This document shows, piece by piece, positions 1-13,528 of a DNA stretch of 14,223 nucleotides (positions are counted from its first letter, which is position 1; each line of letters begins with the position of its first letter). The stretch lies in UHGV virus genome UHGV-0168750; one strand, 5' to 3'. Origin of the DNA: a virus. The translations under genes and the position numbers were made by a program. Under the pieces are notes generated by a model. That model saw nothing but the letters and a program-made list of their open reading frames with translations. It did not search any database and was not told the origin of the DNA.

Positions 1-48
1 TCTACACGTAAGGAGTCGTCGGCAGCGTCAGATGTGTATAAGAGACAG
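1..48. other. Library artefact: Illumina Nextera-type adapter (P5 tail TCTACAC, 8-nt index GTAAGGAG, read-1/Tn5 mosaic-end adapter)
   Basis: Positions 16-48 read TCGTCGGCAGCGTCAGATGTGTATAAGAGACAG, the Nextera read-1 transposase adapter; 1-7 TCTACAC is the 3' end of the P5 primer and 8-15 GTAAGGAG sits where the i5 index belongs (from memory this is index 505). Exact string match read directly. Confidence 0.9.
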
Positions 49-49
49 G

Positions 50-280
50 CTTATTATTTATACAGCTGAGGAAACACACTGGCTCGGGTTGCTAGACGGT
101 AAATTTGAATCTCGTATATTGAATAAAAACACGATTTGGGCAACGGGCTCAGGTCAAGCTTTTGCTCGTGCAGCCTGGGCAACAGGTATAAGCGAAAAGA
201 ACATTATTCCATTAGTAGGATCAATTGATACCGCCACATCGGAAACGTATGACTTATTTTACAGGAAGCACTTACGATGA
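50..280 (+). CDS. Hypothetical protein, 5'-truncated at the adapter/contig boundary (C-terminal ~76 aa only)
   Basis: Open frame running out of the adapter to TGA at 278-280; the first six codons of the ORF-track call (32-49) are adapter sequence. Stop overlaps the next start (ATGA). Contains a GSGxAFARAA motif. Confidence 0.45.
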   Translation, partial: LIIYTAEETHWLGLLDGKFESRILNKNTIWATGSGQAFARAAWATGISEKNIIPLVGSIDTATSETYDLFYRKHLR

Positions 281-798
281 AGATAAACGCAGTTTTAATT
301 GGCGATGAAATTTACGTTAATACAAAAACGCAATATTTGTATTACGAAGGCATTACTGTAATAGACGATTACTACGGTAAATACGGTTGGTGGATTCCGT
401 CCCCTAATTCTTTACGGTTAGAAGAAGCATTAACTGCCGAAGAGAACAATCTGGAAAAGGAATGGAGTTATATCAGTTCCGTCATTGACGTCAGCGGTCG
501 AATTAAAGATGTCTACTGGGCTAAGGAATCAGGCTGGCGTGTTACACTTCACCAATCTGCACCAGTAAGACTGCTGTACGACCACTCGGACACATCGGAG
601 TTAGCGTTTACCATTGAGACGCTCTCGCTACGTAAAGATTTAGATAACGTGGGTAAAGGGAAGTGGTCTATTGAACGCGTGGAGGAGATTCTCAGTCACT
701 TTAAAGCCAACAACAAATTTAAACGTTGGTGTACATTACCTGAGTTAGTAGAAGAGTTGAAAAAGCGGGATTGCAAACCGCTACCTTTTAACCCGTAG
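277..798 (+). CDS. Hypothetical protein (173 aa)
   Basis: ATG at 277 overlaps the upstream stop (ATGA); uninterrupted 173-codon frame; co-directional operon context. No motif recognised. Confidence 0.6.
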   Translation: MKINAVLIGDEIYVNTKTQYLYYEGITVIDDYYGKYGWWIPSPNSLRLEEALTAEENNLEKEWSYISSVIDVSGRIKDVYWAKESGWRVTLHQSAPVRLLYDHSDTSELAFTIETLSLRKDLDNVGKGKWSIERVEEILSHFKANNKFKRWCTLPELVEELKKRDCKPLPFNP

Positions 799-843
799 TC
801 TTTTTTACAACTGCGGCTATTTTAATGATTAGGAGAAAAGAAA

Positions 844-1308
844 ATGAAATGTTTTGAATCTAAAGAAATTGTTGAGTTGTTTAAACAGCGTGAGAAAACC
901 GCTTTCCGTGACCTGTACGATTCTGATTATCGCCCACTGTTTGCGGTATTGTTGAAACTGGATAAAGAACCCGAAATCGCATTAGCAGAGGTACAGCACC
1001 ACCACGTCAGTTTCGTATTAACCGAAAACATGAGCCGGTGGGTAGATGCTATGCTGATCCGTATTGGGCTCTTGGAAACGCCACACCGTTGGGAAGTGGT
1101 TATTCAGAAATCATTATTCCCACGTGAAGACATTTTCAACAAATATCGTCCGAAACAGTATTACAACCACGACGGGTCGCCAAAACGTGCTTTCCTGGCA
1201 CCGCAACACTTCGTAACCTACGTAACATTGCGTTACAAAGACACCGTGGTGCCGTTTGACACCTACCTGGAAATGCGTGAGATAATTTTAGGGAAGAATC
1301 CGTCATGA
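844..1308 (+). CDS. Hypothetical protein (154 aa)
   Basis: AGGAG at 831-835, 8 nt upstream of ATG 844; stop overlaps the next start (ATGA at 1305-1308). Confidence 0.65.
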   Translation: MKCFESKEIVELFKQREKTAFRDLYDSDYRPLFAVLLKLDKEPEIALAEVQHHHVSFVLTENMSRWVDAMLIRIGLLETPHRWEVVIQKSLFPREDIFNKYRPKQYYNHDGSPKRAFLAPQHFVTYVTLRYKDTVVPFDTYLEMREIILGKNPS

Positions 1309-1787
1309 TTCAATTTTCTGTTGACTCAGAAAGACTGGCGTCGTTTAAAGAGCGTGCTCAGTCTGCAACTAAAAACGGTTACATTGAGAAAGGTGTTCGT
1401 GATACTTGTAAACTAATCAACGACCATCCACATCTGGCAACAATGTGGAGTTGTGAAGGTCACGGTATGTATTCCAAGTCGCCAGGAAATCTGCATATCG
1501 TTTTTGCAGTACATGCCCTCGGGAATCAAATTCCGATGCAGGTTATGTCCGAGCTTGCAAAATCCGATCTTCCCAATTTCTGGAATCTTAGTTTGTGTCG
1601 TCTTTATCTACCCGATGAATATACAGATTTGGTATATCTTGAACCTGATTACGGGTTAAATACCGACGACACTTCTTACTGGGCTTGGAAAGTCGGATAC
1701 ATGTGTCTGATTAATCGTCCCGCATTAGTCGAAACACGTCAAGCACTTTATAAAGCATTTCACACTGTATTAGTTGAGAATAAATAA
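1305..1787 (+). CDS. Hypothetical protein (160 aa)
   Basis: ATG overlapping the upstream stop; stop TAA overlaps the next ATG (TAATG at 1785-1789). Confidence 0.6.
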   Translation: MIQFSVDSERLASFKERAQSATKNGYIEKGVRDTCKLINDHPHLATMWSCEGHGMYSKSPGNLHIVFAVHALGNQIPMQVMSELAKSDLPNFWNLSLCRLYLPDEYTDLVYLEPDYGLNTDDTSYWAWKVGYMCLINRPALVETRQALYKAFHTVLVENK

Positions 1788-2479
1788 TGGCTACCAAACA
1801 AAAGAAACCTCGTAACAAAAAGTATAACCCGAAAGCAGCAGCTAACCGTACCGCACACACCATCGCTGAAAACGCATTAAACCGCATTACTTTTGTCGGT
1901 AGCTCGATTCGCCCGATCGGTCCGTACGCGGGCCGTGGTTTCCAGTTTACAACCTCACCGCGTATGCGTATGGCGGCCACTGATATGCTAATCGGCGGTT
2001 TGTTTGACGAGCCGCGTAACTGGAAGCTCTGGGTTGCCCATCTGTACGAAACTGACAATGGCGTTCAAGCAGAAACCATCGTAGCAACTCTTGATGACTA
2101 TACGTTGAGTGATTTCTGTCAGCACGGTGATAAAATCATTAAGTCACTCCGCGAGACAGAAGAAAACTACTTTGGTTATGCTTTTGTTGCAGCACCAAAC
2201 GAACGTTATGATTTCGACCAGGGAGAAGAACGCTTACTGGAAAACTTCATGCATTCTGGACTGTTAGACAAATCCTTACACCTACCTGAAGAAGAACTGA
2301 TGGTTACGCGTAAGGATATGGTAACGTTACTGTTAGCCGATCGTGGTCGTTTTGATATCACTGAATCGCATGTACGTAAAGTACAGAAACTCGTGGATAA
2401 GGTAGACGAAACTGACCTGGACACTAGCGAAGTGGCAACCCGTATCCAATCGGTGGTCAATCAGGAAGAGGATTATTAA
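1787..2479 (+). CDS. Hypothetical protein (230 aa) with a basic Lys/Arg-rich N-terminus and an acidic C-terminus
   Basis: Long uninterrupted frame; N-terminus MATKQKKPRNKKYNPK; TAATG coupling to the upstream gene. Confidence 0.65.
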   Translation: MATKQKKPRNKKYNPKAAANRTAHTIAENALNRITFVGSSIRPIGPYAGRGFQFTTSPRMRMAATDMLIGGLFDEPRNWKLWVAHLYETDNGVQAETIVATLDDYTLSDFCQHGDKIIKSLRETEENYFGYAFVAAPNERYDFDQGEERLLENFMHSGLLDKSLHLPEEELMVTRKDMVTLLLADRGRFDITESHVRKVQKLVDKVDETDLDTSEVATRIQSVVNQEEDY

Positions 2480-2481
2480 AC

Positions 2482-3003
2482 GTGATAGCGAGACTTGCGA
2501 GTTGGTTTAAGCAACGTCGGGCAAAGGCGGTCGAATGGCCGCCTATTACGCACGATGAAAAGGTGGTTGCTTTTCTGAACTATAACAAAGACTTGAAGAG
2601 ATTGGGCGAAATAATGCGCCTAAAGGAAACCCAAGTCTTTGCTAAGATTTCAAGTAGTGCTTTACGTAAACAAGTATTTCCCCACCTATCCTTTTCAGGG
2701 CAAGTTTATGCAATAACCGCAGAGAAATTTTTATCGATGGCGGGCAATGAAACCCCACGCATACGGTTCTCGGCTACAGATTCATCTGATGCGGTCGGTA
2801 CAGTTGATTTCGGACGATTCTATCGATGCATTAAAGACGTGGGCCATATACATGTTAAACGGGTATCAGAAACATCTGTAGTGATTTATCACCGTACTGA
2901 GAATGATTTGTTAGGGCGTGTTATAACGTTAACGAATTTACATAGTTTTTACGTTGATTTACTCACTGAGTTTTATCCAGAACCATGGTGTTTTATACGA
3001 TGA
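2482..3003 (+). CDS. Hypothetical protein (173 aa), GTG start
   Basis: GTG at 2482 lies 2 nt after the upstream TAA, preceded by AGGAAGAGGA; stop TGA overlaps the next ATG (ATGA at 3000-3003). Confidence 0.55.
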   Translation: MIARLASWFKQRRAKAVEWPPITHDEKVVAFLNYNKDLKRLGEIMRLKETQVFAKISSSALRKQVFPHLSFSGQVYAITAEKFLSMAGNETPRIRFSATDSSDAVGTVDFGRFYRCIKDVGHIHVKRVSETSVVIYHRTENDLLGRVITLTNLHSFYVDLLTEFYPEPWCFIR

Positions 3004-3212
3004 ACAGAGCTAATGGATATATCATCTCGGCAATTGTTTCAACCGTGCTGATTGTGACGATGTTGATGTTTTATGTCCGTGTGTCAGATGACTCACGCAA
3101 AGAAAGCCTTTATCGTGAATGTATGTCGGGAACGACTGTGGACAATCCGCGTTACAGCGAATTGGTAATGGCGTGCACAGAACATGCTAAGCTAATGGGA
3201 GATGGCCGATGA
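3000..3212 (+). CDS. Small membrane protein (70 aa) with one N-terminal transmembrane helix
   Basis: ATG at 3000 in an ATGA overlap; hydrophobic stretch YIISAIVSTVLIVTMLMFYV followed by a charged tail. The ORF-track start at 2985 is rejected because it overlaps the upstream gene. Confidence 0.5.
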   Translation: MNRANGYIISAIVSTVLIVTMLMFYVRVSDDSRKESLYRECMSGTTVDNPRYSELVMACTEHAKLMGDGR

Positions 3213-3406
3213 AGATTTGGTTACCGATTGTAGCTTTTGTTCTTATTGCGGGCGCACTAGCAAGTGCCGAGTGTGACAATCGTGTTTTAGAAAAGAAAAG
3301 CGAATTGTATCAGGATTGCATAAAGGACTACACACCCGGTACAGAGCTTCATGCGCAGGCTGTAAAAAGTTGTGCGCTGATGGCTGAATCGCAGACTCGT
3401 TCCTAA
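3209..3406 (+). CDS. Small secreted or periplasmic Cys-containing protein (65 aa) with a signal-peptide-like N-terminus
   Basis: MKIWLPIVAFVLIAGALASA then ECDN; four Cys in the mature part; ATGA overlap with the upstream gene. No canonical lipobox. Confidence 0.5.
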   Translation: MKIWLPIVAFVLIAGALASAECDNRVLEKKSELYQDCIKDYTPGTELHAQAVKSCALMAESQTRS

Positions 3407-3780
3407 TGCGTATCTGGACGTTACAGCTTGCTAAGTGGCGGTTAGCGAAATCGAAGGGATTTTACGCGGTAGATATTACAGTCAAATCAGGGCGAAAGGA
3501 ACTCGCCCCCGACTGGGATTTCTTAATGGCGTATAAAAACTCCACAAAGGACGCAACTGCTGAAGCCGACTATACCGTAAAGTATCTTTACAAGCTTGAA
3601 CGATTACTGGACTCAGATGCCGAAGTGTTGGTATCGTTACTTAGGCACGAAGACCTGGTGCTGATGTGTTATTGTCCCGCAGGTAAGTTTTGCCATCGAC
3701 ACTTACTGGCTAAGAAACTTCAAGACGTCGGAATGATGTTCGGTTTTGACGTTGAGTTATGTGGAGAATTAACGGACTGA
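3406..3780 (+). CDS. Hypothetical protein (124 aa) with a C-x-C-x6-CHR motif; possibly DUF488/YeaO-like
   Basis: TAATG coupling; motif LVLMCYCPAGKFCHRHLLAKKL near the C-terminus. Family assignment is from memory of the DUF488 pattern, not a search. Confidence 0.5.
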   Translation: MRIWTLQLAKWRLAKSKGFYAVDITVKSGRKELAPDWDFLMAYKNSTKDATAEADYTVKYLYKLERLLDSDAEVLVSLLRHEDLVLMCYCPAGKFCHRHLLAKKLQDVGMMFGFDVELCGELTD

Positions 3781-3807
3781 TTCGATTTTTAGATGTAAAA
3801 TGACCTT

Positions 3808-3852
3808 CTACCGCCCGATTCTATGGGCGGTAGGTGTTTTTATTTTTTTTTT
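3808..3852 (+). terminator. Rho-independent terminator closing the upstream small-gene block
   Basis: Perfect 9-bp stem CTACCGCCC (3808-3816) / GGGCGGTAG (3825-3833), 8-nt loop, then a T-rich run (3835-3852) including ten consecutive T. Confidence 0.65.
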
Positions 3853-3868
3853 GATCTGGGAGGTTTTA

Positions 3869-4429
3869 GTGGCCACTTACGTACCTGATTTAAGCCTGAC
3901 CTCAGCCGAATTAGTGGTCGCTTTAATCAACCACGATAACGGTTCACAGTTGTCTTTAAGAGAAATTCGTATTAGCAACACTGTGGTAAACCCGTCTCCG
4001 ACCACTTCGCGTCGTAACACACTGTCAGAGATTACAAAAATCAGGAAACCTGACGGTGCTTCTGTGGTTGTTTATTACGATCGCTTAGATGCGGAAGAAG
4101 TATTAGCTTCTGAACCTATTTTGATTTCGTTAGACGGTACTGAAGATAACATTCGTGACATTTTAGATGTTGTAAATGAATTCTGCGGAACGAACTTACA
4201 GCCTGACGATTTGCGCGCTTCAGATATCACATTAGGTAACGATCCCATTGCTGTTAACGTTGCTGACGATTCTCCTGCGTGGATGAATGCGTTTATGGTG
4301 ACGTTATTCGATACAACCGAACGAGCATTAGCCAACGAAGAAGACGCGATCTTCTGTATTGGCGATGTTGCTGTTCTTACATTTGAGGTTCCAGATGGCG
4401 ACTCAGCTGAAGAAAACCCGACTACATGA
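3869..4429 (+). CDS. P1a: conserved small protein (186 aa), paralogue of 13013-13528; likely tail-fibre-associated
   Basis: GTG at 3869 preceded by GGGAGG (3858-3863). N-terminus VATYVPDLSLTS..LINHD matches MGQFVPDLSLTS..LINHD of the paralogue; shared motifs KIRxP, YYxRLxAE, CG(T/S)NLQP(D/E)DL, VLTF. The ORF-track start at 3800 lies inside the terminator hairpin. Confidence 0.6.
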   Translation: MATYVPDLSLTSAELVVALINHDNGSQLSLREIRISNTVVNPSPTTSRRNTLSEITKIRKPDGASVVVYYDRLDAEEVLASEPILISLDGTEDNIRDILDVVNEFCGTNLQPDDLRASDITLGNDPIAVNVADDSPAWMNAFMVTLFDTTERALANEEDAIFCIGDVAVLTFEVPDGDSAEENPTT

Positions 4430-4856
4430 ACTTGACAGTTTTACCGGTGACCCACAGGGCGGGGTATTACTGTTTAGTAAAGAGAATAAAGAATACAAAA
4501 TTAACGCCGAACAGTTACTACCAACGAACACCGTAACTACGGTAAACGGTGCTGACGGCACGGCAACGATTAATCCAAATAACGTTACTGACGTTATACT
4601 GGTATTAAACGATCCTGCGACAACCTTAACTATCTCCCCGTTAACGGAAGCCAAAGCAAACGTTCGGGTTGAGTTTTATTTAACCGTTAAGCAAGGAACA
4701 GGGGCGAATAAGATTACTTGGCCGGATAATGTAAAATGGCCACATAACGCAACTCCTGTTTTGTCCTTTACAGCTAATGCGGAAGATACATTAGCGTTCT
4801 ATACGCTTGATGGTGGGACTACGTGGAAAGGTTCCCTCATCGCCGCAGGTTACTAA
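4395..4856 (+). CDS. P2a: small protein (153 aa) carrying the shared N-terminal module (putative virion-docking domain)
   Basis: ATG at 4395 preceded by GAGGT; residues 5-40 KKTRLHELDSFTGDPQGGVLLFSKENKEYKINAEQL align with the N-termini of the long fibre and of 13528-14148. Overlaps P1a by 35 nt. Confidence 0.6.
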   Translation: MATQLKKTRLHELDSFTGDPQGGVLLFSKENKEYKINAEQLLPTNTVTTVNGADGTATINPNNVTDVILVLNDPATTLTISPLTEAKANVRVEFYLTVKQGTGANKITWPDNVKWPHNATPVLSFTANAEDTLAFYTLDGGTTWKGSLIAAGY

Positions 4857-4858
4857 CG

Positions 4859-7800
4859 ATGAGAAAAACTTTTCAACGACACGCTATTTCTTACGCACTG
4901 TCGTTAGCCTACGGGCACCAAACATTCGTTACTCGAAATACGGGGACAACGAATGATGCTCACACAGACCACTTTATTCAGAATGAAGAAGGGGTCTTAG
5001 CTAATAACCGTCACTTTATTGCAGATACGATGGCGGAGTACCAGCCCAATGGTGATGCAACGACCGAAGGTCAATCGCTACACATCCTTGGGTACTGTCA
5101 TCTGTATATTGCAACTAAAGACCCAAGATGGTTAGATGCAGCAAAACATGCATGGGATGCTTACACTACCTACTTTTACGGTGGGCAAGCTATTCCGACT
5201 ACACCTCAGCGTTTTATTTGTAACTGGTTAGTAAACGGAAAAGAGCCGGTACTCGCGCACTATCCGATACACCCAACAGAACCTACACACGGTGGTTACA
5301 AATGTGTACCCGTCAGGTTCACTAACGGTCAGTGCAAAATACCACACGGTGCACCGTTCTGGGGTGAATATCTAGACACCTTTACGTTTGCTCATCGTGG
5401 TCATCCAACGTGGGGTGCTATTAATGCGGACGTACAGATTATCAAGGAGGATAAAGAAGGGTTAATCGATTGGGATGCTGTGTTAACGCATCTGATTACG
5501 AATCCCGATAAACCTTACGAAACGAAAGCCTGGGTTGACTGGCCAACGTTACTGAACAACGCTACTGGCTACACACCGCTGTGGGGTGGTTCTTCATCAA
5601 AAGGACCTAAGCACGATGTCGACTGGATAGTTGCCTGGACAGGTAACAAGATTCAGGATAGCGAGATTATTGAGTCGGGCTTAGCAGACGCCGATAAAGG
5701 TACCGTACAGTTAAAAGATACTCAATTAAACGGTGTCTATTTAATTAACTACGCGGTAAAACTTCCTGTCGAGCACGGCGGTTATGCTTTTAAACGTAAT
5801 GAACCGTGGCACAACCGACCCGTACATACACCATTCTTAGGCTCTAAGAACCAGTACGGTAATGCAGCAGATGCAGAACTGTGGTTTATCGACGCTTGTT
5901 ATTTGCTGTGGCGAATTACAGGTGAAGATAAATACAAACACGCGTTAGACTGTGCGTTTTACACCGCACACGAGTATACGTATATTGATGCCGCCGACAA
6001 GTTCTTTAGACGTTCTACGGCCGCAGAAACACCGTTTACCGATGGTATCTCTTACGACTTCGATTATCCCGATACCGTGAGCGTCGAATACGGTCGCGAT
6101 ACGAATGGCGATATCACTATCCACGCACCTAAAGCTGTACAACACTTTATGGAGCAGCAAGCAGTACGTTTTAGAATCAATAAAGATTCTAAGCTCAGAG
6201 TGACGTATGGTGGTGTGTGTAAAAACGGTGACCCGGTATATTGTCGTGCGATGGTTGACATTAATCCGGTAAAGGCTGACACGGAAGAAGTGAACTGGTA
6301 CGGTTTAACGTTACCCCGTTCTACTTCGTTAAGCGTTAAGCAATACGATATTGACTTAGGTCAACTTGCACGGATTACTACCCCAGAAGGGGAAGACTAT
6401 TTAATCGCAGATGCACGAGCCTGCTCGGATTACGGCGGTTGTACGTGGGAAGAACGGTTTGAAGACAATATCTACGATGGTCGTGCGGGTACCATTGTCG
6501 AAGCTTTATTTCCGAATGACGATGCGGGCTTTATTATCGGTTTCTGGTTAACCGAAGCGGAGAAGGTTAAGCCGGTTTCTATCGTTTATCGTGCGGACGC
6601 AGACTTTAACCTACGTTTAGTTGATTCTGATAACTGGCGTTGGTGGTGGATGTTACCGAACACGAACAACGAATGGCGACAAGTAACCTTAAATTTAGAG
6701 GACGCGACGTTATCGGGATACCAACCTGACCACACTGACGCTGATCCTGAGCCTTCAGCACCTAACTTCGATAAGGTTGACCAGGTTACTATCCTGCCCG
6801 ATTCTGCTGTAGACCACGCTCACTTTGCTTACTATTGCGTGAATGATGTCCCGCCGGTCTTTAATAAAGATGATGGGTATATCCTCACGTTCCGTATCGC
6901 TTTACGCGGTGGGAGTGAGTTTGACGCAAAAGTCGGCGATTGTACCATCAAAGACTATCGTTTAGACTCACTGGCGTATTGTCCTGGGACGATTCCGTTC
7001 TCGAATATTTATTCAGAAGGGTCTGAACAGCTCGGTGCATGGCACGGTATGCCCTACCCAGGTTATCAATATCCGTTTATGTACGCAATACACAAAGATG
7101 ACCGGTATAAACTGTGGTTAGAGAACCAAATACAGTTTATGCATGACTCGCAAATTGCGTATCAAAAACAGATTGGTGAGTTAGGGCCAGGTTGTGCAGC
7201 CTATATCTGGAATCGTTGGGATAACTACAGTTACGGAAAACCAGATACCTGGACAACATTCCATTGGGGTGACGATCACCCCTGGGCAGGCTACCAACCG
7301 CGCGCATTTCATGCTGCCTGTCGGTGTTGGTACGAGTTAACGTTACGAGGCAAATCAGTTCCTGAGACGTTAACAACCTATATCGAGAATTGGGTGAATT
7401 GGTTAGGTGGGTTTGTGGATAGGTTTAATGGCCACACGCCAAACGAGTTCCCCACAGCACCGAATAAGCCGGTTTGGGTAGAAGACGACTTTACAGCGCA
7501 TATGTGTGCGCTGTGGTTAGCGGGTTGTTGCTGGGCGTTACTTGCCGGTGCGACGAACCCTAACTACGAAAAAGTAGTTAATGCCGCAATTAAAGAGCTC
7601 GGTGACGGGTTTACGATTACGTCAATTCCAAACAAACCCATTAATGGTGCTTGGTCGCCTGCGCCACGAGAGTCTTCGGATAACGGAATGGCTTTTGGTT
7701 TCTATACCGGTGAAGCATTACGTGCTTTAGGACTTTATATCACTTATAAAACTTACGGAGCCAACACAAACATTTATCATGACTTAGCAATCCCAGAACA

Positions 7801-7864
7801 CGAAAGCGCGGTATTAGACGTCACCATCGCCTTAGAAGATGACGCATTAAAACCGGAATTATAA
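4859..7864 (+). CDS. Large Trp/Tyr-rich protein (1001 aa); putative virion-associated carbohydrate-active enzyme (depolymerase-like)
   Basis: ATG at 4859 is 3 nt after the P2a stop, in frame with the ORF-track GTG at 4823. Helical segments such as ADAELWFIDACYLLWRITGEDKYKHALDCAFYTAHEY and AHMCALWLAGCCWALLAGATNPNYEKVVNAAIKELGDG recall alpha/alpha-barrel glycosidases or lyases. Existence of the gene is secure; the function is inferred. Confidence 0.7.
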   Translation: MRKTFQRHAISYALSLAYGHQTFVTRNTGTTNDAHTDHFIQNEEGVLANNRHFIADTMAEYQPNGDATTEGQSLHILGYCHLYIATKDPRWLDAAKHAWDAYTTYFYGGQAIPTTPQRFICNWLVNGKEPVLAHYPIHPTEPTHGGYKCVPVRFTNGQCKIPHGAPFWGEYLDTFTFAHRGHPTWGAINADVQIIKEDKEGLIDWDAVLTHLITNPDKPYETKAWVDWPTLLNNATGYTPLWGGSSSKGPKHDVDWIVAWTGNKIQDSEIIESGLADADKGTVQLKDTQLNGVYLINYAVKLPVEHGGYAFKRNEPWHNRPVHTPFLGSKNQYGNAADAELWFIDACYLLWRITGEDKYKHALDCAFYTAHEYTYIDAADKFFRRSTAAETPFTDGISYDFDYPDTVSVEYGRDTNGDITIHAPKAVQHFMEQQAVRFRINKDSKLRVTYGGVCKNGDPVYCRAMVDINPVKADTEEVNWYGLTLPRSTSLSVKQYDIDLGQLARITTPEGEDYLIADARACSDYGGCTWEERFEDNIYDGRAGTIVEALFPNDDAGFIIGFWLTEAEKVKPVSIVYRADADFNLRLVDSDNWRWWWMLPNTNNEWRQVTLNLEDATLSGYQPDHTDADPEPSAPNFDKVDQVTILPDSAVDHAHFAYYCVNDVPPVFNKDDGYILTFRIALRGGSEFDAKVGDCTIKDYRLDSLAYCPGTIPFSNIYSEGSEQLGAWHGMPYPGYQYPFMYAIHKDDRYKLWLENQIQFMHDSQIAYQKQIGELGPGCAAYIWNRWDNYSYGKPDTWTTFHWGDDHPWAGYQPRAFHAACRCWYELTLRGKSVPETLTTYIENWVNWLGGFVDRFNGHTPNEFPTAPNKPVWVEDDFTAHMCALWLAGCCWALLAGATNPNYEKVVNAAIKELGDGFTITSIPNKPINGAWSPAPRESSDNGMAFGFYTGEALRALGLYITYKTYGANTNIYHDLAIPEHESAVLDVTIALEDDALKPEL

Positions 7865-7883
7865 CCCGCTTATAAAAAAAAAT

Positions 7884-7905
7884 GGGGGAGCATTCTACCT
7901 CCCCC
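7884..7905 (+). promoter_or_regulatory. GC-rich hairpin in the intergenic region upstream of the long tail-fibre gene
   Basis: GGGGGAG (7884-7890) / CTCCCCC (7899-7905) with an 8-nt loop, preceded by TATAAAAAAAAA (7871-7882); only a short T run follows, so a weak terminator or RNA stability/processing element. Confidence 0.3.
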
Positions 7906-7938
7906 GATCTTTTAGCTCCCGATAGAGAATTAAATATC

Positions 7939-10900
7939 ATGGCTAAAGCGGTCAAGAAAATACGTTTGCACGATTTACGTCCTTACGCCGGTGATATCGG
8001 TGAAGGCGTTTTGCTTTTTTCGAAAGACGAAAAAGATTATCAATTACCAGTCCGTGAGATCGTTGCTGATATTGACACCGTAAGGAACGCGGTTGCTGAT
8101 GCACAGTCCGCAGCAGCACAATCACAACAGTCGGCCACAGAAGCAACACAAGCAAAAGATTTAGCGGAAACCGCGAAACAGCAGGTTGACACTACCGCAT
8201 CAACTGTTAGCGAACAAGCACAAACGGTAGCAACAAAAGCGGCTGAGGTCGGCACAAAACATGCCGAAGTTTTAGCAGCAAAAACAGCAGTAGACACTGT
8301 TTTACAGTCGGTGAACGAAAAGGCTCAGGCCGTCTCTGCGAGTGAAAAAGCAGTCACAACAGCCGCCGCCGACGTAACGAAGAAAGCAGAAACTGTTACC
8401 CAGCAAGCTGGTCAAGTTCAACAGTCAGTCACTAGCATCACTGAAATTGCGGCAACTGTTGAAGCCAGTAAAGGCGCTGTGGAAGCTACTGCTGTACAAG
8501 TTACGAAAGACAAAGAATCCGCAGAAGGGGCAGCGACGCGTTCAGAAGCTGCTGCACAACGTGCTGAAGACATCGCTGCACAGGGGTTAATTGACGCCAC
8601 TACAGCTAACAAGGGTATCGTTAAACTTAATAATACCCTAACCAGTGATTCAGTAACGGAAGCGGCTACACCGTCGACAGTGAAGCAACTGAACGACGAG
8701 CTGCAATTAAAAGCCAACAAGCACTCACCGAACTTTACGGGGCAGCCGTCAGCACCAACACCTCCGAAAAATTCTAATGATACCAGTATTTCGACTACTG
8801 CGTGGGTACGTGCAGCTATCGCTGAATTAGTCGGTTCTTCTCCTGAAACGTTAGATACCTTAGCGGAATTAGCCGAAGCGCTGGGTAATGATCCTAACTT
8901 CGCAACAACGATTACTGAGAAACTTGCGCAGAAGCAACCTATCAGTCCGTTACTCACTGCAATCGCTGCGGTTACGACAGCGGCAAATAAACTCCCGTAT
9001 TTCACCGGCACTAATAAAGTCGGGTTAGCCGATTTTACAGAAACCGCCAGAACGTTATTAGCGAAAGGTTCAACAACCGAAATCATTGAGTTTTTAGGAT
9101 TAAAAGCCACCGTAGATAAAGCGAATGGCGCATTACAGAAAAACTCTAATGGTGCTGATATTCCAGATAAAGAAACATTTGCCCGCAATATTGGTCTGTC
9201 TCCTGACACTTATCTGCGTTTCCGTGGTGAAATGCCAACTGATGCGGATATCAACACTTTCGCCCCAGATACCAACTACACGGGTACGTGGTCGAAAGCA
9301 ACCTCGACCAACGCGACAATGGCAAAACACTTTCCAGAAGACGGTGCGGTCGGTTATCTGGAAGTGTATAAAGCGGGTAACTATAGCGGTGCACAACGTT
9401 TTACCTGTCGTAATGGTAACGTCTATAACCGTATGTTGTCAGGTGTGTGGAACGGCACTAATGGCCCGTGGTCACCGTGGAGAATGGTAACTACCGGTGT
9501 ACGTCCACTGGCTACATCAATTGACCTGAACTCCTTAGGCGGTGCCGAACACATGGGTAACTGGCGAAACTCGTCCAGTTCGTTGGCTACCTTTGCTAAC
9601 CACTACCCGGAAGAGGGCGGTGCTGCTCAAGGTGTTTTGGAAGTCATGGAAGGCGGTCTTTACGGACGTTTACAACGTTACACTACTCGACGTGGTACGA
9701 TGTATGTTCGTGGTTTGACGGCGACGTGGGATTCTACTAATCCGCAATGGGAAGATTGGATTCAGGTAGGTTATCAAACCGACGGCGCGTATTACAAAGG
9801 AAACTTCGATAACCTGACTAAACCAGGTCGTTTCAGCGTCACTGGAGAAGCCACGAATGGTCCCCTTACAGGTCCTTCGGGTGAAACATTGTTGGGTGTC
9901 TGTGCAGTTACTGTACGTTTAGACGGTACAGGGATCGAACAAACCTACACCACGCACGGTACAGGTGCGGAGTACAAAGGTCGACGTTTCCACCGTATTC
10001 GTACGGGTAATGTCTGGACGCCGTGGCGCGAGATTTACGACTCGAACAGTTTAGCCATGTTGTTAGGGGTCGGCGGCGAACGTGCGAATGTTGATCCTTT
10101 AGACTGGCAAACCTACGACTTTAAACCGGGTGAATTAATCTGTACGCCACTTAATACCATGAAAAACATTCCTGCGGGAATGGATTGGGGTGTTATCGAC
10201 GGTAATTTAATTAACATCCTGGTTGGGCCATCTGATGGCGCTACGTCAGGTCGAAGTATGTTGGTTTGGCGTAGTACGGTGTCTACCGCCAACTATCGCT
10301 TCTTTGCAGTACGTATCGCCGGTGAGAAGGGTAGCCGTACGATTACGCCACGACAAATGCCTGTGTTGAATGCGGCGCACACTTGGACAGAGAAACAGAC
10401 CTTTGCAAAAGGCTTGTCGGGCGAATTAACCGGTAATGCTTCAACCGCAACCAAATTACAAACTGCCCGGAAAATCGGTGGCGTTGGGTTTGACGGTAGT
10501 GGTGATATTAACCTCCCAGGCGTAAACCAACAGGGTAATCAAAACACCACGGGTAATGCCGGGACAGCCACTAAACTTCAAACCGCCAGAAATATTAACG
10601 GCGTGAGATTCGACGGTTCTGGCGATATTAATATCAACACCCTGGTAGGTCGTGGTCGGGTTACAGCTCTAACCGGCTCAGCGAAAGGTACACCTGGTAT
10701 CCAGATGTACGAAGTTTACAATAACGGTTATCCGACCGCTTATGGTAACTTACTACATTTAGGTGGTTCTACAGCTGTAGGCGAAGGCGAACTGTTAATC
10801 GGTTGGTCAGGTACTAACGGCGCACACGCCCCAGTGTTTATCCGTAGTCGTCGCGACAATGCGGAAGCACCATGGTCGGACTGGGCACAGGTATACACCG

Positions 10901-12441
10901 CCCGCGATAGCATCCCAGGGGTAAACGCGACTGGTAATCAAGATACTACCGGTAACGCGGCTACCGCGACGAAGTTGAAAACCGCTCGCAAAATTGGCGG
11001 TGTGAGCTTTGATGGTACTGGGGATATCAATTTACCGGGGGTTAACCAGCAAGGCAACCAGAATACGACAGGTAATGCAGCAACCGCTACCAAGTTACAA
11101 ACCGCAAGAACCATCAATGGTGTTGCGTTTGACGGCACTAAAAACATCGAAATAACGGCTGAAAGTTTAAATCTTGGTCAAACCGTAGAATTGGCCGGTG
11201 GGTCATTGCAGAAAAACCAGAACGGCGCAGATATTCCTGATAAGGGTCGCTTCCTGAGTAACATTAATGTTTACAGCAAAGGCGAGGTGGATGAGAAAAA
11301 AGGAATGCGGCAGTACGTATTTAACGCGCCGTCTAATGCCGTTGGCGGAAAGTGGTATCCAGTTATTTTCCGGCGTTCCACTGGTAGCACCGGCGAACTG
11401 GCTTCCAGAGTAGTTATTACAACTACATCTGCCGGTGGCGATTACGCAATGAATAACTGCGAATTCAATGGAACGGTAATGGCGGGCGGTTGGACTGATC
11501 GCGGTTCATACGCAGCAGGGTATTTTTCGATATATCAGACTAATGAGCGCGCAATCCATTCCATTGTAACAGGTGTGAAAGATGATGATGTGTGCAGCGT
11601 TTTTTACGTCGAAGGTAGGGCTTTCCCTATTCGAGTTTTTGCCGAAGAAGGGTTATCGGTTAGTGTTCCGACCCAGAATTATACCGTCGGTCAAACAACC
11701 TATAAGTGGGGAGCAACTAATCCTGCGACAGAAAGCACGAACGCACAAACCATTTTGGATTTTAACAATGGACGAGGATTTTATTGTTCCCATTCAATAT
11801 TCGCTATTAATAGTATTTTAAGCGGTAATCTGGGTATCGGTACCGCGAATGCTTTAGGTGGGAATTCCATAGTTTTAGGGGATAATGACACCGGTCTTAA
11901 ACAGAATGGGGACGGTATTCTAGATGTCTATGCCAACGGTCGACATGTATACCGTTTTCAAAACGGCATTGCTATTGCTCTTTATGGTGTTCAGGCTGGT
12001 AACGGTAAAAAACTTTCGTTAACTAGCGCAAACAATTCCACGTTGAATGCGGGTCTTAACATTTGGGGTAACTCTTCGCGTCCAACTGTTGTAGAACTCG
12101 GTGATGACGCAGGCTGGCATTTTTATAGCCAACGAAACACCGACAACTCGATATCGTTCGCCGTTAATGGGCAAATTCAACCGGGAAACTGGAGTAATTT
12201 CGATTCCAGGTACCAAGCACGGTCAGGAGTTGTCCAGGATGTTCGTTTCGGTGGTCAAAGTTATCATAACCCCGGGAGTAATACGACCTCTTGGAATTTC
12301 TCCGCTCCAGGTGGTCATTGTCTTACTGGTATTTCTATATCGGATACTGGCAAAAACTCGGCAGATAACGTTAACGGTGTTTATTATCGCCCGCTACAAA
12401 AATTGGTTAATGGTACTTGGTACAACGTCGCGTCGGTATAG
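7939..12441 (+). CDS. Long tail fibre protein (1500 aa)
   Basis: N-terminal shared module [36 protein letters not shown]; Ala/Gln/Thr-rich coiled-coil-like region; tandem ~75-aa domains; four copies of the tail-fibre repeat TGNAxTATKLxTARxIxGVxFDGSGDI; C-terminal [13 protein letters not shown]-type motif; followed by a Tfa chaperone gene. The ORF-track start at 7882 lies inside the hairpin. Confidence 0.85.
9247..10038 (+). repeat. Three tandem ~75-aa domain repeats inside the fibre (a fourth diverged copy at about 10640-10897)
   Basis: Each unit ends in a Trp-rich motif: [38 protein letters not shown], and in the fourth copy [12 protein letters not shown]. Protein-level periodicity; the nucleotide sequences are diverged. 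Confidence 0.45.
10432..10636 (+). repeat. Pair of tail-fibre sequence repeats (~33 aa each) inside the fibre gene
   Basis: [69 protein letters not shown]; the T-A-T-K-L...FDGSxDI pattern is the classical phage tail-fibre repeat shared by T-even and lambdoid side fibres. Confidence 0.7.
10933..11154 (+). repeat. Second pair of tail-fibre sequence repeats
   Basis: [74 protein letters not shown]; same motif as 10432-10636 with many synonymous differences, so an old duplication. Confidence 0.7.
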
Positions 12442-12443
12442 TT

Positions 12444-12974
12444 ATGTTACATTTAAAAAATATTCGTTCAGGAAACCCTAAAACTCCCGAACAGTGGGAG
12501 CTTACCAAGCGCTTAGGCGTCATATGGCTTTACGATGAAACCGGAAAAAATTGGTATGAGGAGCAAAAGAATTTTCAAGCAGATACTATAAAATTCGGGT
12601 ACGATGCGGACGGCATCATACGTTGGAAGGTTAAAGACATAACGTCGATAAACCCTGACAGTTTAAGCGTTGTTGAAGTTCCCGACGTTATTATAAACCG
12701 TCGTGTCGAATGTAACGGCGAGTGGATGTTTAAAGACGGACGCGCAATCAAGCGGATTTATACGCCGGAGGAGCTGGTTCAACGTGCTGAATCTAAAAAA
12801 GCCGTATTGTTGTCCGAGGCAGAAACAGTCATTAAGCCGCTTGAGCGGGCTGTTAAGCTGAAAATCGCAACAGATCTCGAGCGGTTACGGCTGGAAGCCT
12901 GGGAGGGTTATACTGTAATGATCAGTCGCGTCGATACTAATAATCCCGTCTGGCCTGAAAAACCGCTAATATAA
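12444..12974 (+). CDS. tfa: Tail fibre assembly protein (Tfa-type chaperone, 176 aa)
   Basis: ATG 2 nt after the fibre stop. C-terminus [46 protein letters not shown] matches the conserved Tfa motif (lambda Tfa ends ...[48 protein letters not shown], from memory). The ORF-track start at 12417 overlaps the fibre gene and is rejected. Confidence 0.85.
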
Positions 12975-13012
12975 CCAGCTTGAAACTTCTCTGAAAATTG
13001 GAGGTAAGCTTT

Positions 13013-13528
13013 ATGGGGCAATTCGTGCCGGATTTGTCACTGACCTCACCTAACATGGTTATTTCGTTGATCAATCACGACCTTCAGCTTGATCTGCAAG
13101 AAACCGATGTTGAGTTTAGCGAACTAAAATCTAGCGACACGATGGATCGTGACACCACTGCTGTTGTAAAGATTAGACGTCCTGGTAACAGAACGTTACA
13201 AATCTATTACAACCGTTTAACCGCAGAACGTTGGTTAAACCAGCAACCTATTCTGGTGCAAGTAACTGGCGAGGGGTTTAGCACACACGATTTAATCGAC
13301 GCGATTAACGCAGCCTGTGGCAGTAACCTGCAACCCGAAGATCTTCAGGACGATTCATTTACAGTAGGAAAAGACGCTGTAACGTTACAGGTATCACCTA
13401 ACTCCCTAAGTTATAAAGGCCAATTCTCTGTTTTGGTTTTTGGTAACGGCGAAGAAGCCGCGGTAACAAAAGACGACAACTTAATTGTTACCGCAGATAA
13501 TCGTGTCTTAACCTTCGGAGGTCAATAA
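13013..13528 (+). CDS. P1b: conserved small protein (171 aa), paralogue of 3869-4429
   Basis: ATG at 13013 preceded by TGGAGG; N-terminus MGQFVPDLSLTS..LINHD and internal motifs shared with P1a; stop TAA overlaps the next ATG (TAATG at 13526-13530). Confidence 0.65.
   Translation: MGQFVPDLSLTSPNMVISLINHDLQLDLQETDVEFSELKSSDTMDRDTTAVVKIRRPGNRTLQIYYNRLTAERWLNQQPILVQVTGEGFSTHDLIDAINAACGSNLQPEDLQDDSFTVGKDAVTLQVSPNSLSYKGQFSVLVFGNGEEAAVTKDDNLIVTADNRVLTFGGQ

Follow-up and report, generated by a model that had tools for sequence, protein, structure and literature searches.

A short peptide repeated in a long phage tail fibre is probably the core of a joint box between exchangeable fibre modules

The long tail fibre specified by virus genome UHGV-0168750 carries one 13-amino acid peptide at two widely separated points, and the question raised by this locus is whether such a peptide marks the places where fibre modules are exchanged or serves the folded protein as a hinge or ligand contact, both of which had been put forward in an initial annotation. 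The analysis covered a stretch of 14,223 nucleotides, referred to here as the window. Sequence comparisons indicate that the motif is very probably the core of a joint box of about 38 amino acids, belonging to the P1 S/Mu S/P2 H superfamily and marking the seam at which a proximal shaft meets an exchangeable distal cassette. Fibre genes that are not otherwise related have this short island of conservation in common, and their similarity passes from one partner to another there.

The features of the region are collected in Table 1. Translation of the fibre probably begins at the ATG of position 7939, which makes the protein 1500 amino acids long, and MAKAVKK are the first residues in most of 120 homologues of the fibre, which come from ~220-kb elements of E. 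coli, Salmonella and Shigella. A Pfam scan of the fibre gave a single match to PF03406 (Phage_fiber_2 repeat), at aa 240–280, and no Pfam model, PF03406 included, covering either copy of the motif. The C-terminus is similar to Mu fibre protein S (PDB 5yvq; E-value 2e-13), this tip being the sole part of the fibre with a strong match to that protein; together with the 54% identity to a P2-like H protein and the Tfa gene downstream, this places the distal end in the chaperone-dependent class of Mu S and P2 H. The chaperone gene is cognate to cassette B. The neighbouring genes that were scanned specify Tfa, virion structural proteins and a tail protein.

Table 1. Coordinates of the tail-fibre gene, its modules and the two joint boxes in the window
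Feature	Position	Strand	Remarks
Tail-fibre gene	7882..12441	+	1519-aa ORF (ORF list and translation); both motif copies in frame inside
Proximal shaft (aa 138-408)	8293..9105	+	Like constant part Sc of P7/P1 fibre protein S
Joint box 1 (aa 401-439)	9082..9198	+	IIEFLGLKA, TVDKANGA, 13-aa core, tail ETFARNIGL; 63% identical to Mu_3F6 S 166-203
Motif copy 1, 13-aa core (aa 418-430)	9133..9171	+	From sequence; counterpart at same position in 120/120 homologues
Cassette A (aa 431-878)	9172..10515	+	Three knob-like beta domains and one further domain; homologous to the part of P2_4C9-type gpH after its own motif copy
Distal shaft (aa 781-1108)	10222..11205	+	Like variable part Sv of P7 S; TATKLQTAR...FDG repeats and globular insert
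Joint box 2 (aa 1095-1130)	11164..11271	+	14-aa upstream part, 13-aa core, tail GRFLSNINV
Motif copy 2, 13-aa core (aa 1109-1121)	11206..11244	+	Holds 29-nt core CAGAAAAACCAGAACGGCGCAGATATTCC, identical in P7 and Mu_3F6
Cassette B (aa 1122-1519)	11245..12438	+	Distal receptor-binding cassette of P2_2H4 gpH type; blastp and prophage matches
Tail-fibre assembly chaperone gene (Tfa)	12417..12974	+	phrog_136, tail fiber assembly protein, E 1e-62

That the motif occurs at two points in the fibre was borne out. The two cores agree at 12 of 13 positions, while among 100 shuffles of the protein the best pair of 13-mers reached at most 9 identities (mean 7.3), and a profile of the box run over all six frames of the window found exactly two places, with domain E-values of 3e-25 and 6e-26. 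The longer stretches named in the annotation lie at aa 416–440 (nt 9127–9201) and aa 1107–1132 (nt 11200–11277); the repeat is longer than was first seen, with 20 of 38 residues identical (53%) between aa 406–443 and aa 1097–1134. At the DNA level the copies share only 30 of 39 nucleotides in the core (77%) and 59 of 114 in the box, so this is a repeat of protein rather than of DNA. As had also been noted, the copies bracket a region of tandem domains and repeats, with knob-like domains and TATKLQTAR...FDG repeats lying between them. The peptide consensus of the box is TVxxAxG[AS]LQKxxNGADIPxKxxFxxN[IV]. The codons for NGADIP show synonymous differences among nine copies, which argues that the peptide is also under selection; this conservation through synonymous change makes a structural role of the peptide likely.

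Box 1, judged from its alignments, joins a shaft like the Sc of P1/P7 to a knob cassette of the P2_4C9 type. In BLASTP comparisons aa 138–408 of the fibre match P7 S 182–457 with 41% identity, and the match stops where cix, the crossover site of P7, is annotated (aa 454). By the same kind of comparison IIEFLGLKA is the homologue of the peptide encoded by gix and cix. On the distal side, aa 383–878 match P2_4C9 H 169–668, and the motif of P2_4C9 H, MQKDQNGGDIPDK, immediately precedes the cassette, whose counterpart in that protein is 59% identical to the one in the window. A TBLASTN search with cassette A found it in 232 phage records, at ~59% identity in P2-like phages. The H proteins of P2_4C9 and P2_2H4 have aa 1–204 and the motif in common and are divergent thereafter. 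Natural chimeras were also found: in P0148 a left half of the copy-1 type and a right half of the copy-2 type meet inside one motif, and in P0107 and P0110 the allele changes within SNGADIPDK. Mean identity to the window over aa 411–450, the region of copy 1, is 98–99% among the 120 homologues, and within this close family the evidence at box 1 is limited to five divergent alleles and two recombinants.

Both boxes mark limits of similarity to other fibres. The limit is sharpest at the second, which by its alignments joins a shaft like the Sv of P7 to a receptor-binding cassette of the P2_2H4 type. BLASTP aligned aa 781–1128 with P7 S 429–689 (48%) and aa 1109–1519 with P2_2H4 H 340–748 (54%); homology to P7 Sv thus extends to aa 1128 and that to P2_2H4 H sets in at aa 1109. 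MEGABLAST against P7 covered nt 3190–3356 of the fibre gene and stopped within motif 2. Counted in bins of 15 nt, P7 DNA has 10–12 identities per bin upstream of the core, 14–15 in it and a mean of ~6 (range 2–9) past it, and P2_2H4 DNA has the opposite pattern. In Mu_3F6 and Yersinia phages the match is confined to ~40 nt, at 95%. The 29-nt core CAGAAAAACCAGAACGGCGCAGATATTCC is identical in the window, P7 and the Mu-like phage Mu_3F6, within unrelated flanks, the partner changing on either side; the upstream part of the box aligns with Mu NLGLQETVNQASGS, minus two codons. Many E. coli prophages match the window from nt 11204 on.

The same boundary is visible in the close family. Identity to the window is at least 70% through aa 1101–1120 in 67 of the 120 homologues and beyond that in 15–16, and in 52 of the 120 the module changes directly after box 2. 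In a further 53 the switch lies ~17 aa upstream of box 2, and the same downstream cassettes are also joined without the motif (P0015, P0064 and p98232), so the box is a frequent seam and not an obligatory one.

The initial annotation had named a motif private to this fibre as the refuting case, and the motif is far from private. It was found in 124 phage records of Punavirus, Muvirus, Peduoviridae, lambdoid and 9g-like phages, and the box profile matched 409 protein clusters at E ≤ 1e-3; with the 29-nt core, these records and clusters make the box a short sequence common to otherwise unrelated fibre genes. Two to four copies are present in 67 of the best 149 of the 409 clusters. The profile was used in place of a word-indexed homology search, which with a 45-aa motif query gave one candidate. 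The 104 motif-bearing proteins fall into 11 upstream and 27 downstream flank clusters, of which 40 combinations were observed. Internal BLAST alignments start (39%) and end (27%) within −35..+20 of the core more often than at random positions (15%), an enrichment that is partly built in, every protein of the set having been chosen for its motif. The boundary position proposed for the motif thus recurs in P7, Mu-like and P2-like phages, BIS20 and the 52 close homologues, and with partners switching at the boxes, the suggestion of a junction for module exchange is supported.

In Mu-like phages the gix invertase site directly adjoins the box, and one reading would make both copies crossover sites for a DNA invertase of the Gin/Cin/Pin type, in use now or until recently, so that programmed inversion would switch the region between or after them in this element. 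In Mu_3F6, gixL encodes FIQNLGLQE between two copies of the motif. A Mu-like prophage of DEC13D (locus L006) has the order invertase gene, gix site (24/26), motif and cassette B, and is identical to the window at 92 of 100 nt from the start of the motif, gix and the invertase gene lying directly upstream; cassette B is there an invertible Sv' cassette. The cix site of P7 corresponds in position to aa 404–408 of the window, and the pix repeat of e14, TTGGTTTGGGAGAAGG (PMC12529663), would translate to GLGE, several profile matches having LGLGE just before the motif. Crossover sites or site-like DNA thus stand at the boundary in Mu_3F6, DEC13D and P7 but not in the window, whose best gix/cix-like matches (16–17/26) equal the shuffled expectation (mean 16.6, maximum 18–19) and lie away from the boxes; the DNA of box 1 is not gix/cix-like. 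No serine invertase or resolvase gene is evident among the ORFs of the window, and no inverted pair of sites flanks opposed cassettes: the copies are direct, the long ORFs around the fibre are all on the + strand, and there is no minus-strand fibre cassette. Breakpoints at box 2 also fall in the motif core and not 35–60 nt upstream, where a crossover site would be. With gix/cix-like DNA at chance level this reading was rejected for the window and is very improbable; no inversion system is active there and the joints are fixed, the link to invertases remaining only as a peptide vestige (FLGLK, NLGQ).

Alternatively, the motif could owe its retention chiefly to a structural role in the fibre, whether as a repeating unit of the shaft, as a neck or hinge, or as a turn that binds an ion at the three-fold axis. 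Its boundary position would then be a by-product, since any conserved linker resembles a boundary. Such a role would agree with a peptide retained through synonymous change in copies that share only 77% of their core nucleotides, and in some fibres, such as P0132, 3–4 copies follow in tandem every ~48 aa, as genuine shaft repeats do. In AlphaFold2 monomer models of aa 395–745 and aa 1085–1330 (mean pLDDT 52 and 58) the core appears both times as a loop flanked by short helices and lies outside a confident beta domain starting ~18 aa later, but the models are of low confidence at the motif itself (pLDDT 30–38 at both copies). Foldseek of the aa 1085–1330 model against the PDB found nothing at E ≤ 0.001. 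PDB entries 5yvq, 9ki1 and 8ju3 contain the sequence, and in the Mu gp49 structure paper the N-terminus alone was modelled. Such a role would leave unexplained both the 29-nt identity among the window, P7 and Mu_3F6 and the reciprocal switch of partners; as the main reason for the motif it is unlikely, and it is compatible with a module joint, not exclusive of it. Chaperones of the Tfa family bind the C-terminal tip in Mu (PDB 5YVQ). That the motif contacts a ligand or receptor, or docks the assembly chaperone, has no direct support, just a marginal galectin-like similarity after copy 1 (E ~1e-3), and is scarcely credible: the motif lies 400–1100 residues from the fibre tip, which is where the Mu family chaperones bind and where the only strong match to Mu S is found, it precedes at least 27 unrelated types of downstream cassette, and the phages that have it (P1, Mu, P2, lambdoid and 9g-like siphoviruses) differ in their receptors. 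Ligand contact was rejected since the motif is common to fibres with unrelated distal cassettes, and the hinge or contact offered in the initial annotation found no support, the receptor-binding cassettes after the motif being of several kinds and the models being of low confidence there.

For the joint box, a mechanism may be proposed at two levels. Islands of near-identity of some 29–40 nt would let recombination splice cassettes in frame, and the box, as a context-independent piece of the trimeric shaft, would allow chimeras joined at it still to fold, so that selection could keep such recombinants. In Mu-type phages, where the box abuts the crossover site, every invertible cassette begins with it. 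Cassette B is served by the chaperone gene downstream. A variant, rather doubtful, is that the box is a universal trimeric adaptor, independent of context, in which the peptide is selected as well as the DNA. It would be used twice here to string two complete host-range cassettes together, a lateral knob cassette of the P2_4C9 type and a distal one of the P2_2H4/Mu type, for dual receptor recognition. If true, NGADIP would be a general splice point for chimeric or multi-cassette fibres in P1-, P2-, Mu- and lambda-type phages.

Mosaic joints have been described in P2 H, P1 S, Mu S, lambda Stf and p15B Min (Haggard-Ljungquist 1992, Sandmeier 1992, 1994; as cited in PMC3945230 and PMC8986868), and host-specificity segments of tail fibres are, as these two papers cite Sandmeier 1994, bounded by invertase sites or site-like sequences. 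The window resembles these enterobacterial joints in having short conserved sequences at the borders of host-specificity segments in otherwise unrelated fibre genes, and a C-terminal cassette that travels with its own chaperone gene. It differs in that the fibre is much longer (1500 aa) and lies in a ~220-kb phage-plasmid-like element, in having two joints in series, each before the distal gpH part of a different P2-like phage, and in that no site-like DNA is kept in the boxes. At the Mu Sc/Sv junction (G segment, gix), Mu_3F6 S 166–203 (FIQNLGLQE and the start of Sv) corresponds residue for residue to box 1, which also stands at the end of the P7 Sc, as at the P1/P7 junction (C segment, cix). 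In a Mu-like prophage of E. coli, cassette B follows gix and is truly invertible. Unlike both junctions, the window is without an invertase, an inverted partner cassette or recognisable crossover DNA. In BIS20, a Salmonella phage (Eganvirus/186-like), a tail-fibre hotspot has been reported at which nucleotide homology falls from 74% to 49% at nt 789 (PMC8986868). This boundary (aa 263) lies inside the BIS20 copy of the motif (aa 252–274); in the available text of that paper the hotspot is located statistically and is not tied to a named peptide motif. A full-text literature search for the literal NGADIP returned no relevant paper, and the P2-S16 chimera paper, silent on the motif, places its fusion points elsewhere (PMC9594776).

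No new mechanism is revealed: fibre genes are known to be mosaics with an established link to invertase sites, and joints of this kind have been described since the early 1990s. What the joint box adds is a precise peptide and nucleotide address, the consensus and CAGAAAAACCAGAACGGCGCAGATATTCC, for a seam mostly described in general terms, at which distal cassettes would be swapped among P1-, P2-, Mu-like and lambdoid phages and the large phage-plasmids of E. coli, Salmonella and Shigella. It helps to annotate fibre modules and to predict host-range cassettes in prophages, and it guides the choice of splice points when chimeric fibres are engineered.

Both peptides singled out by the initial annotation were confirmed, in frame, within the 1519-aa tail-fibre ORF, whose C-terminal end has a match in Mu fibre protein S, a protein of solved structure. 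The two 13-residue cores, each containing NGADIP, are identical at 12 positions; in the shuffled fibre protein the best 13-mer pair never exceeded 9/13 identities. The repeat extends past the 13 residues noted earlier, with 20 of 38 residues identical between aa 406–443 and aa 1097–1134, and a profile of this box matched the six-frame translation of the window at copies 1 and 2 only. The nucleotide identity between the copies is low (cores 30/39, boxes 59/114), so the repetition is at the level of protein rather than DNA. Among nine copies from seven sources the codons of NGADIP vary synonymously (AAT/AAC, GGT/GGC/GGA, GCT/GCA/GCG, ATT/ATC, CCA/CCT/CCG/CCC), which shows that the peptide itself is under selection.

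Features of the tail-fibre region of the window
Feature	Residues (aa)	Position (nt)	Strand	Basis or match
Tail-fibre ORF (1519 aa)		7882–12441	+	ORF list and translation
P7 S Sc-like part	138–408			41% identity
Pfam tail-fibre repeat	240–280		+	Pfam match
P2_4C9 gpH-like	383–878			59% identity to P2_4C9 gpH residues 169–668
Box 1, Mu_3F6 fibre-like	401–438			63% identity to Mu_3F6 residues 166–203
Core, copy 1	418–430	9133–9171	+	
P7 Sv-like	781–1128			48% identity; ends at copy 2
Core, copy 2	1109–1121	11206–11244	+	
P2_2H4 gpH-like	1109–1519			54% identity; begins at first residue of copy 2
Tail-fibre assembly chaperone (Tfa) gene		12417–12974		Follows the fibre gene

Of complete records, the nearest is an E. 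coli plasmid of 221,873 bp (NZ_CP173450.1; 81.6% identity over window 46–11148), similarity to which ends just 5′ of copy 2. A protein search with the fibre returned 2058 relatives, the best 120 being fibres of about 1500 aa, many of them on 219–226 kb contigs of E. coli, Salmonella and Shigella. The window appears to be part of a family of ~220–226-kb elements with phage tail and virion genes, which look like large phage-plasmids. In 117 of the 120 homologues the fibre starts MAKAVKK, corresponding to the ATG at nt 7939, 19 codons inside the listed ORF; a longer N-terminus, starting upstream of that ATG, is found in 3. Just 5′ of the fibre gene, a 1013-aa protein (4823–7864) matches phrog_2871 (tail protein; 1477 bits), with no match in a Pfam search. 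Two paralogous genes match phrog_2935 (virion structural protein), one (3800–4429) ahead of the tail-protein and fibre genes and the other (12998–13528) just 3′ of the chaperone gene.

Pairwise protein comparisons with P7, Mu_3F6, P2_4C9 and P2_2H4 revealed a mosaic fibre (see table). The alignment to the constant part (Sc) of P7 S stops at P7 residue 457, three residues beyond the annotated cix crossover (aa 454). In the Mu_3F6 fibre the gixL site, TTATCCAAAACCTCGGTTTACAGGAA, encodes FIQNLGLQE, and with the remainder of residues 166–203 the variable part begins. P2_4C9 gpH carries its own motif copy, MQKDQNGGDIPDK, directly before the same knob-domain cassette as in the window. The gpH proteins of P2_2H4 and P2_4C9 have residues 1–204 and the motif in common and different cassettes thereafter; the window fibre holds both cassettes, each behind one motif copy. 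The knob-like region (aa 431–745, window 9172–10116) comprises three tandem, beta-rich domains of ~100 aa each, with 59% identity to the central part of gpH from many P2-like phages and no match in a Pfam search. The first of these domains resembles galectin-1 only marginally in sequence (E about 1e-3), with no single stretch reaching significance.

Among the close relatives the motif is present at the copy 1 position in 120/120, and aa 411–450 is the best-conserved stretch around it (98–99% mean identity). Five homologues have a diverged knob allele, the divergence beginning at the copy 1 motif: identity is 0.81 upstream of it, 0.57–0.69 downstream in 5/5, and 0.41–0.42 over aa 661–740 in 4/5. 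Two fibres, P0107 and P0110, join the left half of this allele to the common allele's right half, with the switch within SNGADIPDK. A second motif copy occurs in 68 of 121 proteins, at four different positions. All 120 homologues show high identity to the window fibre until about aa 1090, where 53, which lack the second copy, diverge as the last TATKLQTAR...FDG repeat ends. Over aa 1101–1120, 67 are still similar, and after aa 1121 only 15–16; 52 therefore switch cassette immediately after copy 2. Cassettes found behind copy 2 are also joined without the motif, in the homologues P0015 and P0064 and on the plasmid p98232; the box is a frequent rather than an obligatory seam. A second conserved island (window 11818–11961, aa 1313–1360), common to 60/120 homologues with differing flanks, matches T4 gp34 structures (4uxe, 5nxf; E about 1e-7) and looks like another module seam. 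The distal end of the fibre (window 11150–12441 compared with homologues P0009–P0121) takes at least five alternative forms, most of them terminating in a Peptidase_S74-type intramolecular chaperone domain (PF13884), whereas the window has a Tfa-dependent end; on p98232 the fibre gene is followed by one annotated as a receptor-recognizing protein, not Tfa.

The box is widely distributed. A 26-aa motif query matched 124 phage records, including P1/P7/D6/SJ46, Mu/D108/SfMu, P2-like, lambdoid, 9g-like siphoviruses and Yersinia phages. Among 1.84 billion cluster representatives, a 38-column profile picked out 409 proteins at E<=1e-3, of which 87 also passed E<=1e-10. The best 149 of the 409 contain one copy (82 proteins), two (57), three (8) or four (2), the usual tandem form being copy, crossover-site peptide, copy (LxKxxNGADIPxKPLF[IL]QN[VL]GLxET[VI]...). 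In the same 149, the first copy comes no more than 45 residues after the ORF start in 27 ORFs, several ORFs start at the box or just before it, as would be expected of promoterless alternative cassettes, and in proteins of over 300 aa a median of 293 residues follows the last copy. Clustering of the flanks of 104 proteins gave 11 upstream and 27 downstream types in 40 observed combinations. Of the internal alignment starts in an all-against-all BLAST, 39% fell within −35 to +20 residues of the core, as did 27% of the internal ends (15% for random positions), with sharp peaks immediately on either side of the box, an enrichment that is partly built in because every protein was picked for having the box. 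The profile match P0148 is a natural chimera with one motif, its left half of copy 1 type and its right half of copy 2 type; an Sc-like region lies upstream and cassette B, the distal receptor-binding cassette of the window fibre (aa 1122–1519), downstream.

The joint at copy 2 was also resolved in DNA, using megablast of the window against phage genomes and a tally of identities per 15-nt bin around the N codon of NGADIP. The P7 match (fibre nt 3190–3356) stops within the motif and the P2_2H4 match (fibre nt 3321–3912) begins at it; in Mu_3F6 and several Yersinia phages the match is limited to ~40 nt of the motif (95%). Identities to P7 are 10–12 per bin upstream, 14–15 in the core and on average about 6 (range 2–9) after it, and those to P2_2H4 are 2–6 upstream and 11–15 from the core on. 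A stretch of 29 nt, CAGAAAAACCAGAACGGCGCAGATATTCC, shows no difference between the window, P7 and Mu_3F6, and the similarity of many E. coli prophage fibres starts at nt 11202–11209. Since similarity changes partner inside the motif core, and not at the place 35–60 nt upstream expected of a crossover site, we infer that in the window lineage short-homology exchange, or selection of joints made there, would account for the joint rather than invertase action. The association with DNA invertases is evident elsewhere. The sole match of a short-query search, P0001, sits at a contig end in E. coli DEC13D; its neighbours, a resolvase-family gene, com and mom, are those of a Mu-like prophage at its right end. 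There TTATCTAAAACCTCGGTTTGCAGGAA, 72 nt from the invertase gene, matches Mu_3F6 gixL at 24/26 positions and is followed by a 23-residue peptide and then a cassette identical at 92/100 nt to window 11206–11305; cassette B is thus, elsewhere, a real invertible cassette opening with gix and box. The e14 P segment has the inverted repeat TTGGTTTGGGAGAAGG (PMC12529663), which by our translation would encode GLGE, and LGLGE directly precedes the motif in several profile matches. In the window the motif copies are direct repeats, neither an invertase gene nor a minus-strand cassette is present, and a gix/cix scan gave at best 16–17/26, the level of shuffled sequence, away from the boxes. The best cix-like match is a near-palindrome, TTATCCAGAACCATGGTGTTTTATAC (2973–2998; 17/26), no better than the best in shuffled sequence. 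The invertase link of the window is only vestigial.

The initial annotation had offered a hinge or ligand contact as the alternative to a module-exchange junction. Two AlphaFold2 monomer models place both copies in a loop between short helices and are poor there (pLDDT 30–38); in the second, a confident beta domain begins about 18 residues after copy 2, and a PDB structural search with it gave no significant neighbour. The PDB entries of Mu S and S′ contain the motif sequence; a structural paper on the Mu fibre built the N-terminus only (PMC11915804). In four-copy fibres the motif behaves like a true shaft repeat: the profile match P0132 (450 aa) has four tandem copies with a period of about 48 aa and the unit GKAANTVAAGDDSRIxGAxQKxxNGADIxDxSAFRKNVGIGGAGxLDVGK, to which copies reading NLADVPDK or NLSDVPDK are related. 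A functional site of the hinge or contact kind found no support, and the module-exchange junction is supported for both copies, most sharply at copy 2, where the partner switches in the motif core.

That unrelated enterobacterial phages exchange tail-fibre segments has long been known, and so have the invertase sites or site-like sequences that lie where host-specificity segments begin and end (Haggard-Ljungquist 1992; Sandmeier 1992, 1994; cited through PMC3945230 and PMC8986868). In the BIS20 fibre gene a homology break is reported at nt 789 (PMC8986868), which corresponds to aa 263, within the BIS20 motif copy at aa 252–274. Compared with these known mosaic joints, the window differs in that its crossover-site DNA has not survived, in that its fibre is very long and comes from a ~220-kb element, and in having two successive joints, each preceding a cassette that corresponds to the distal gpH module of a different P2-like phage.
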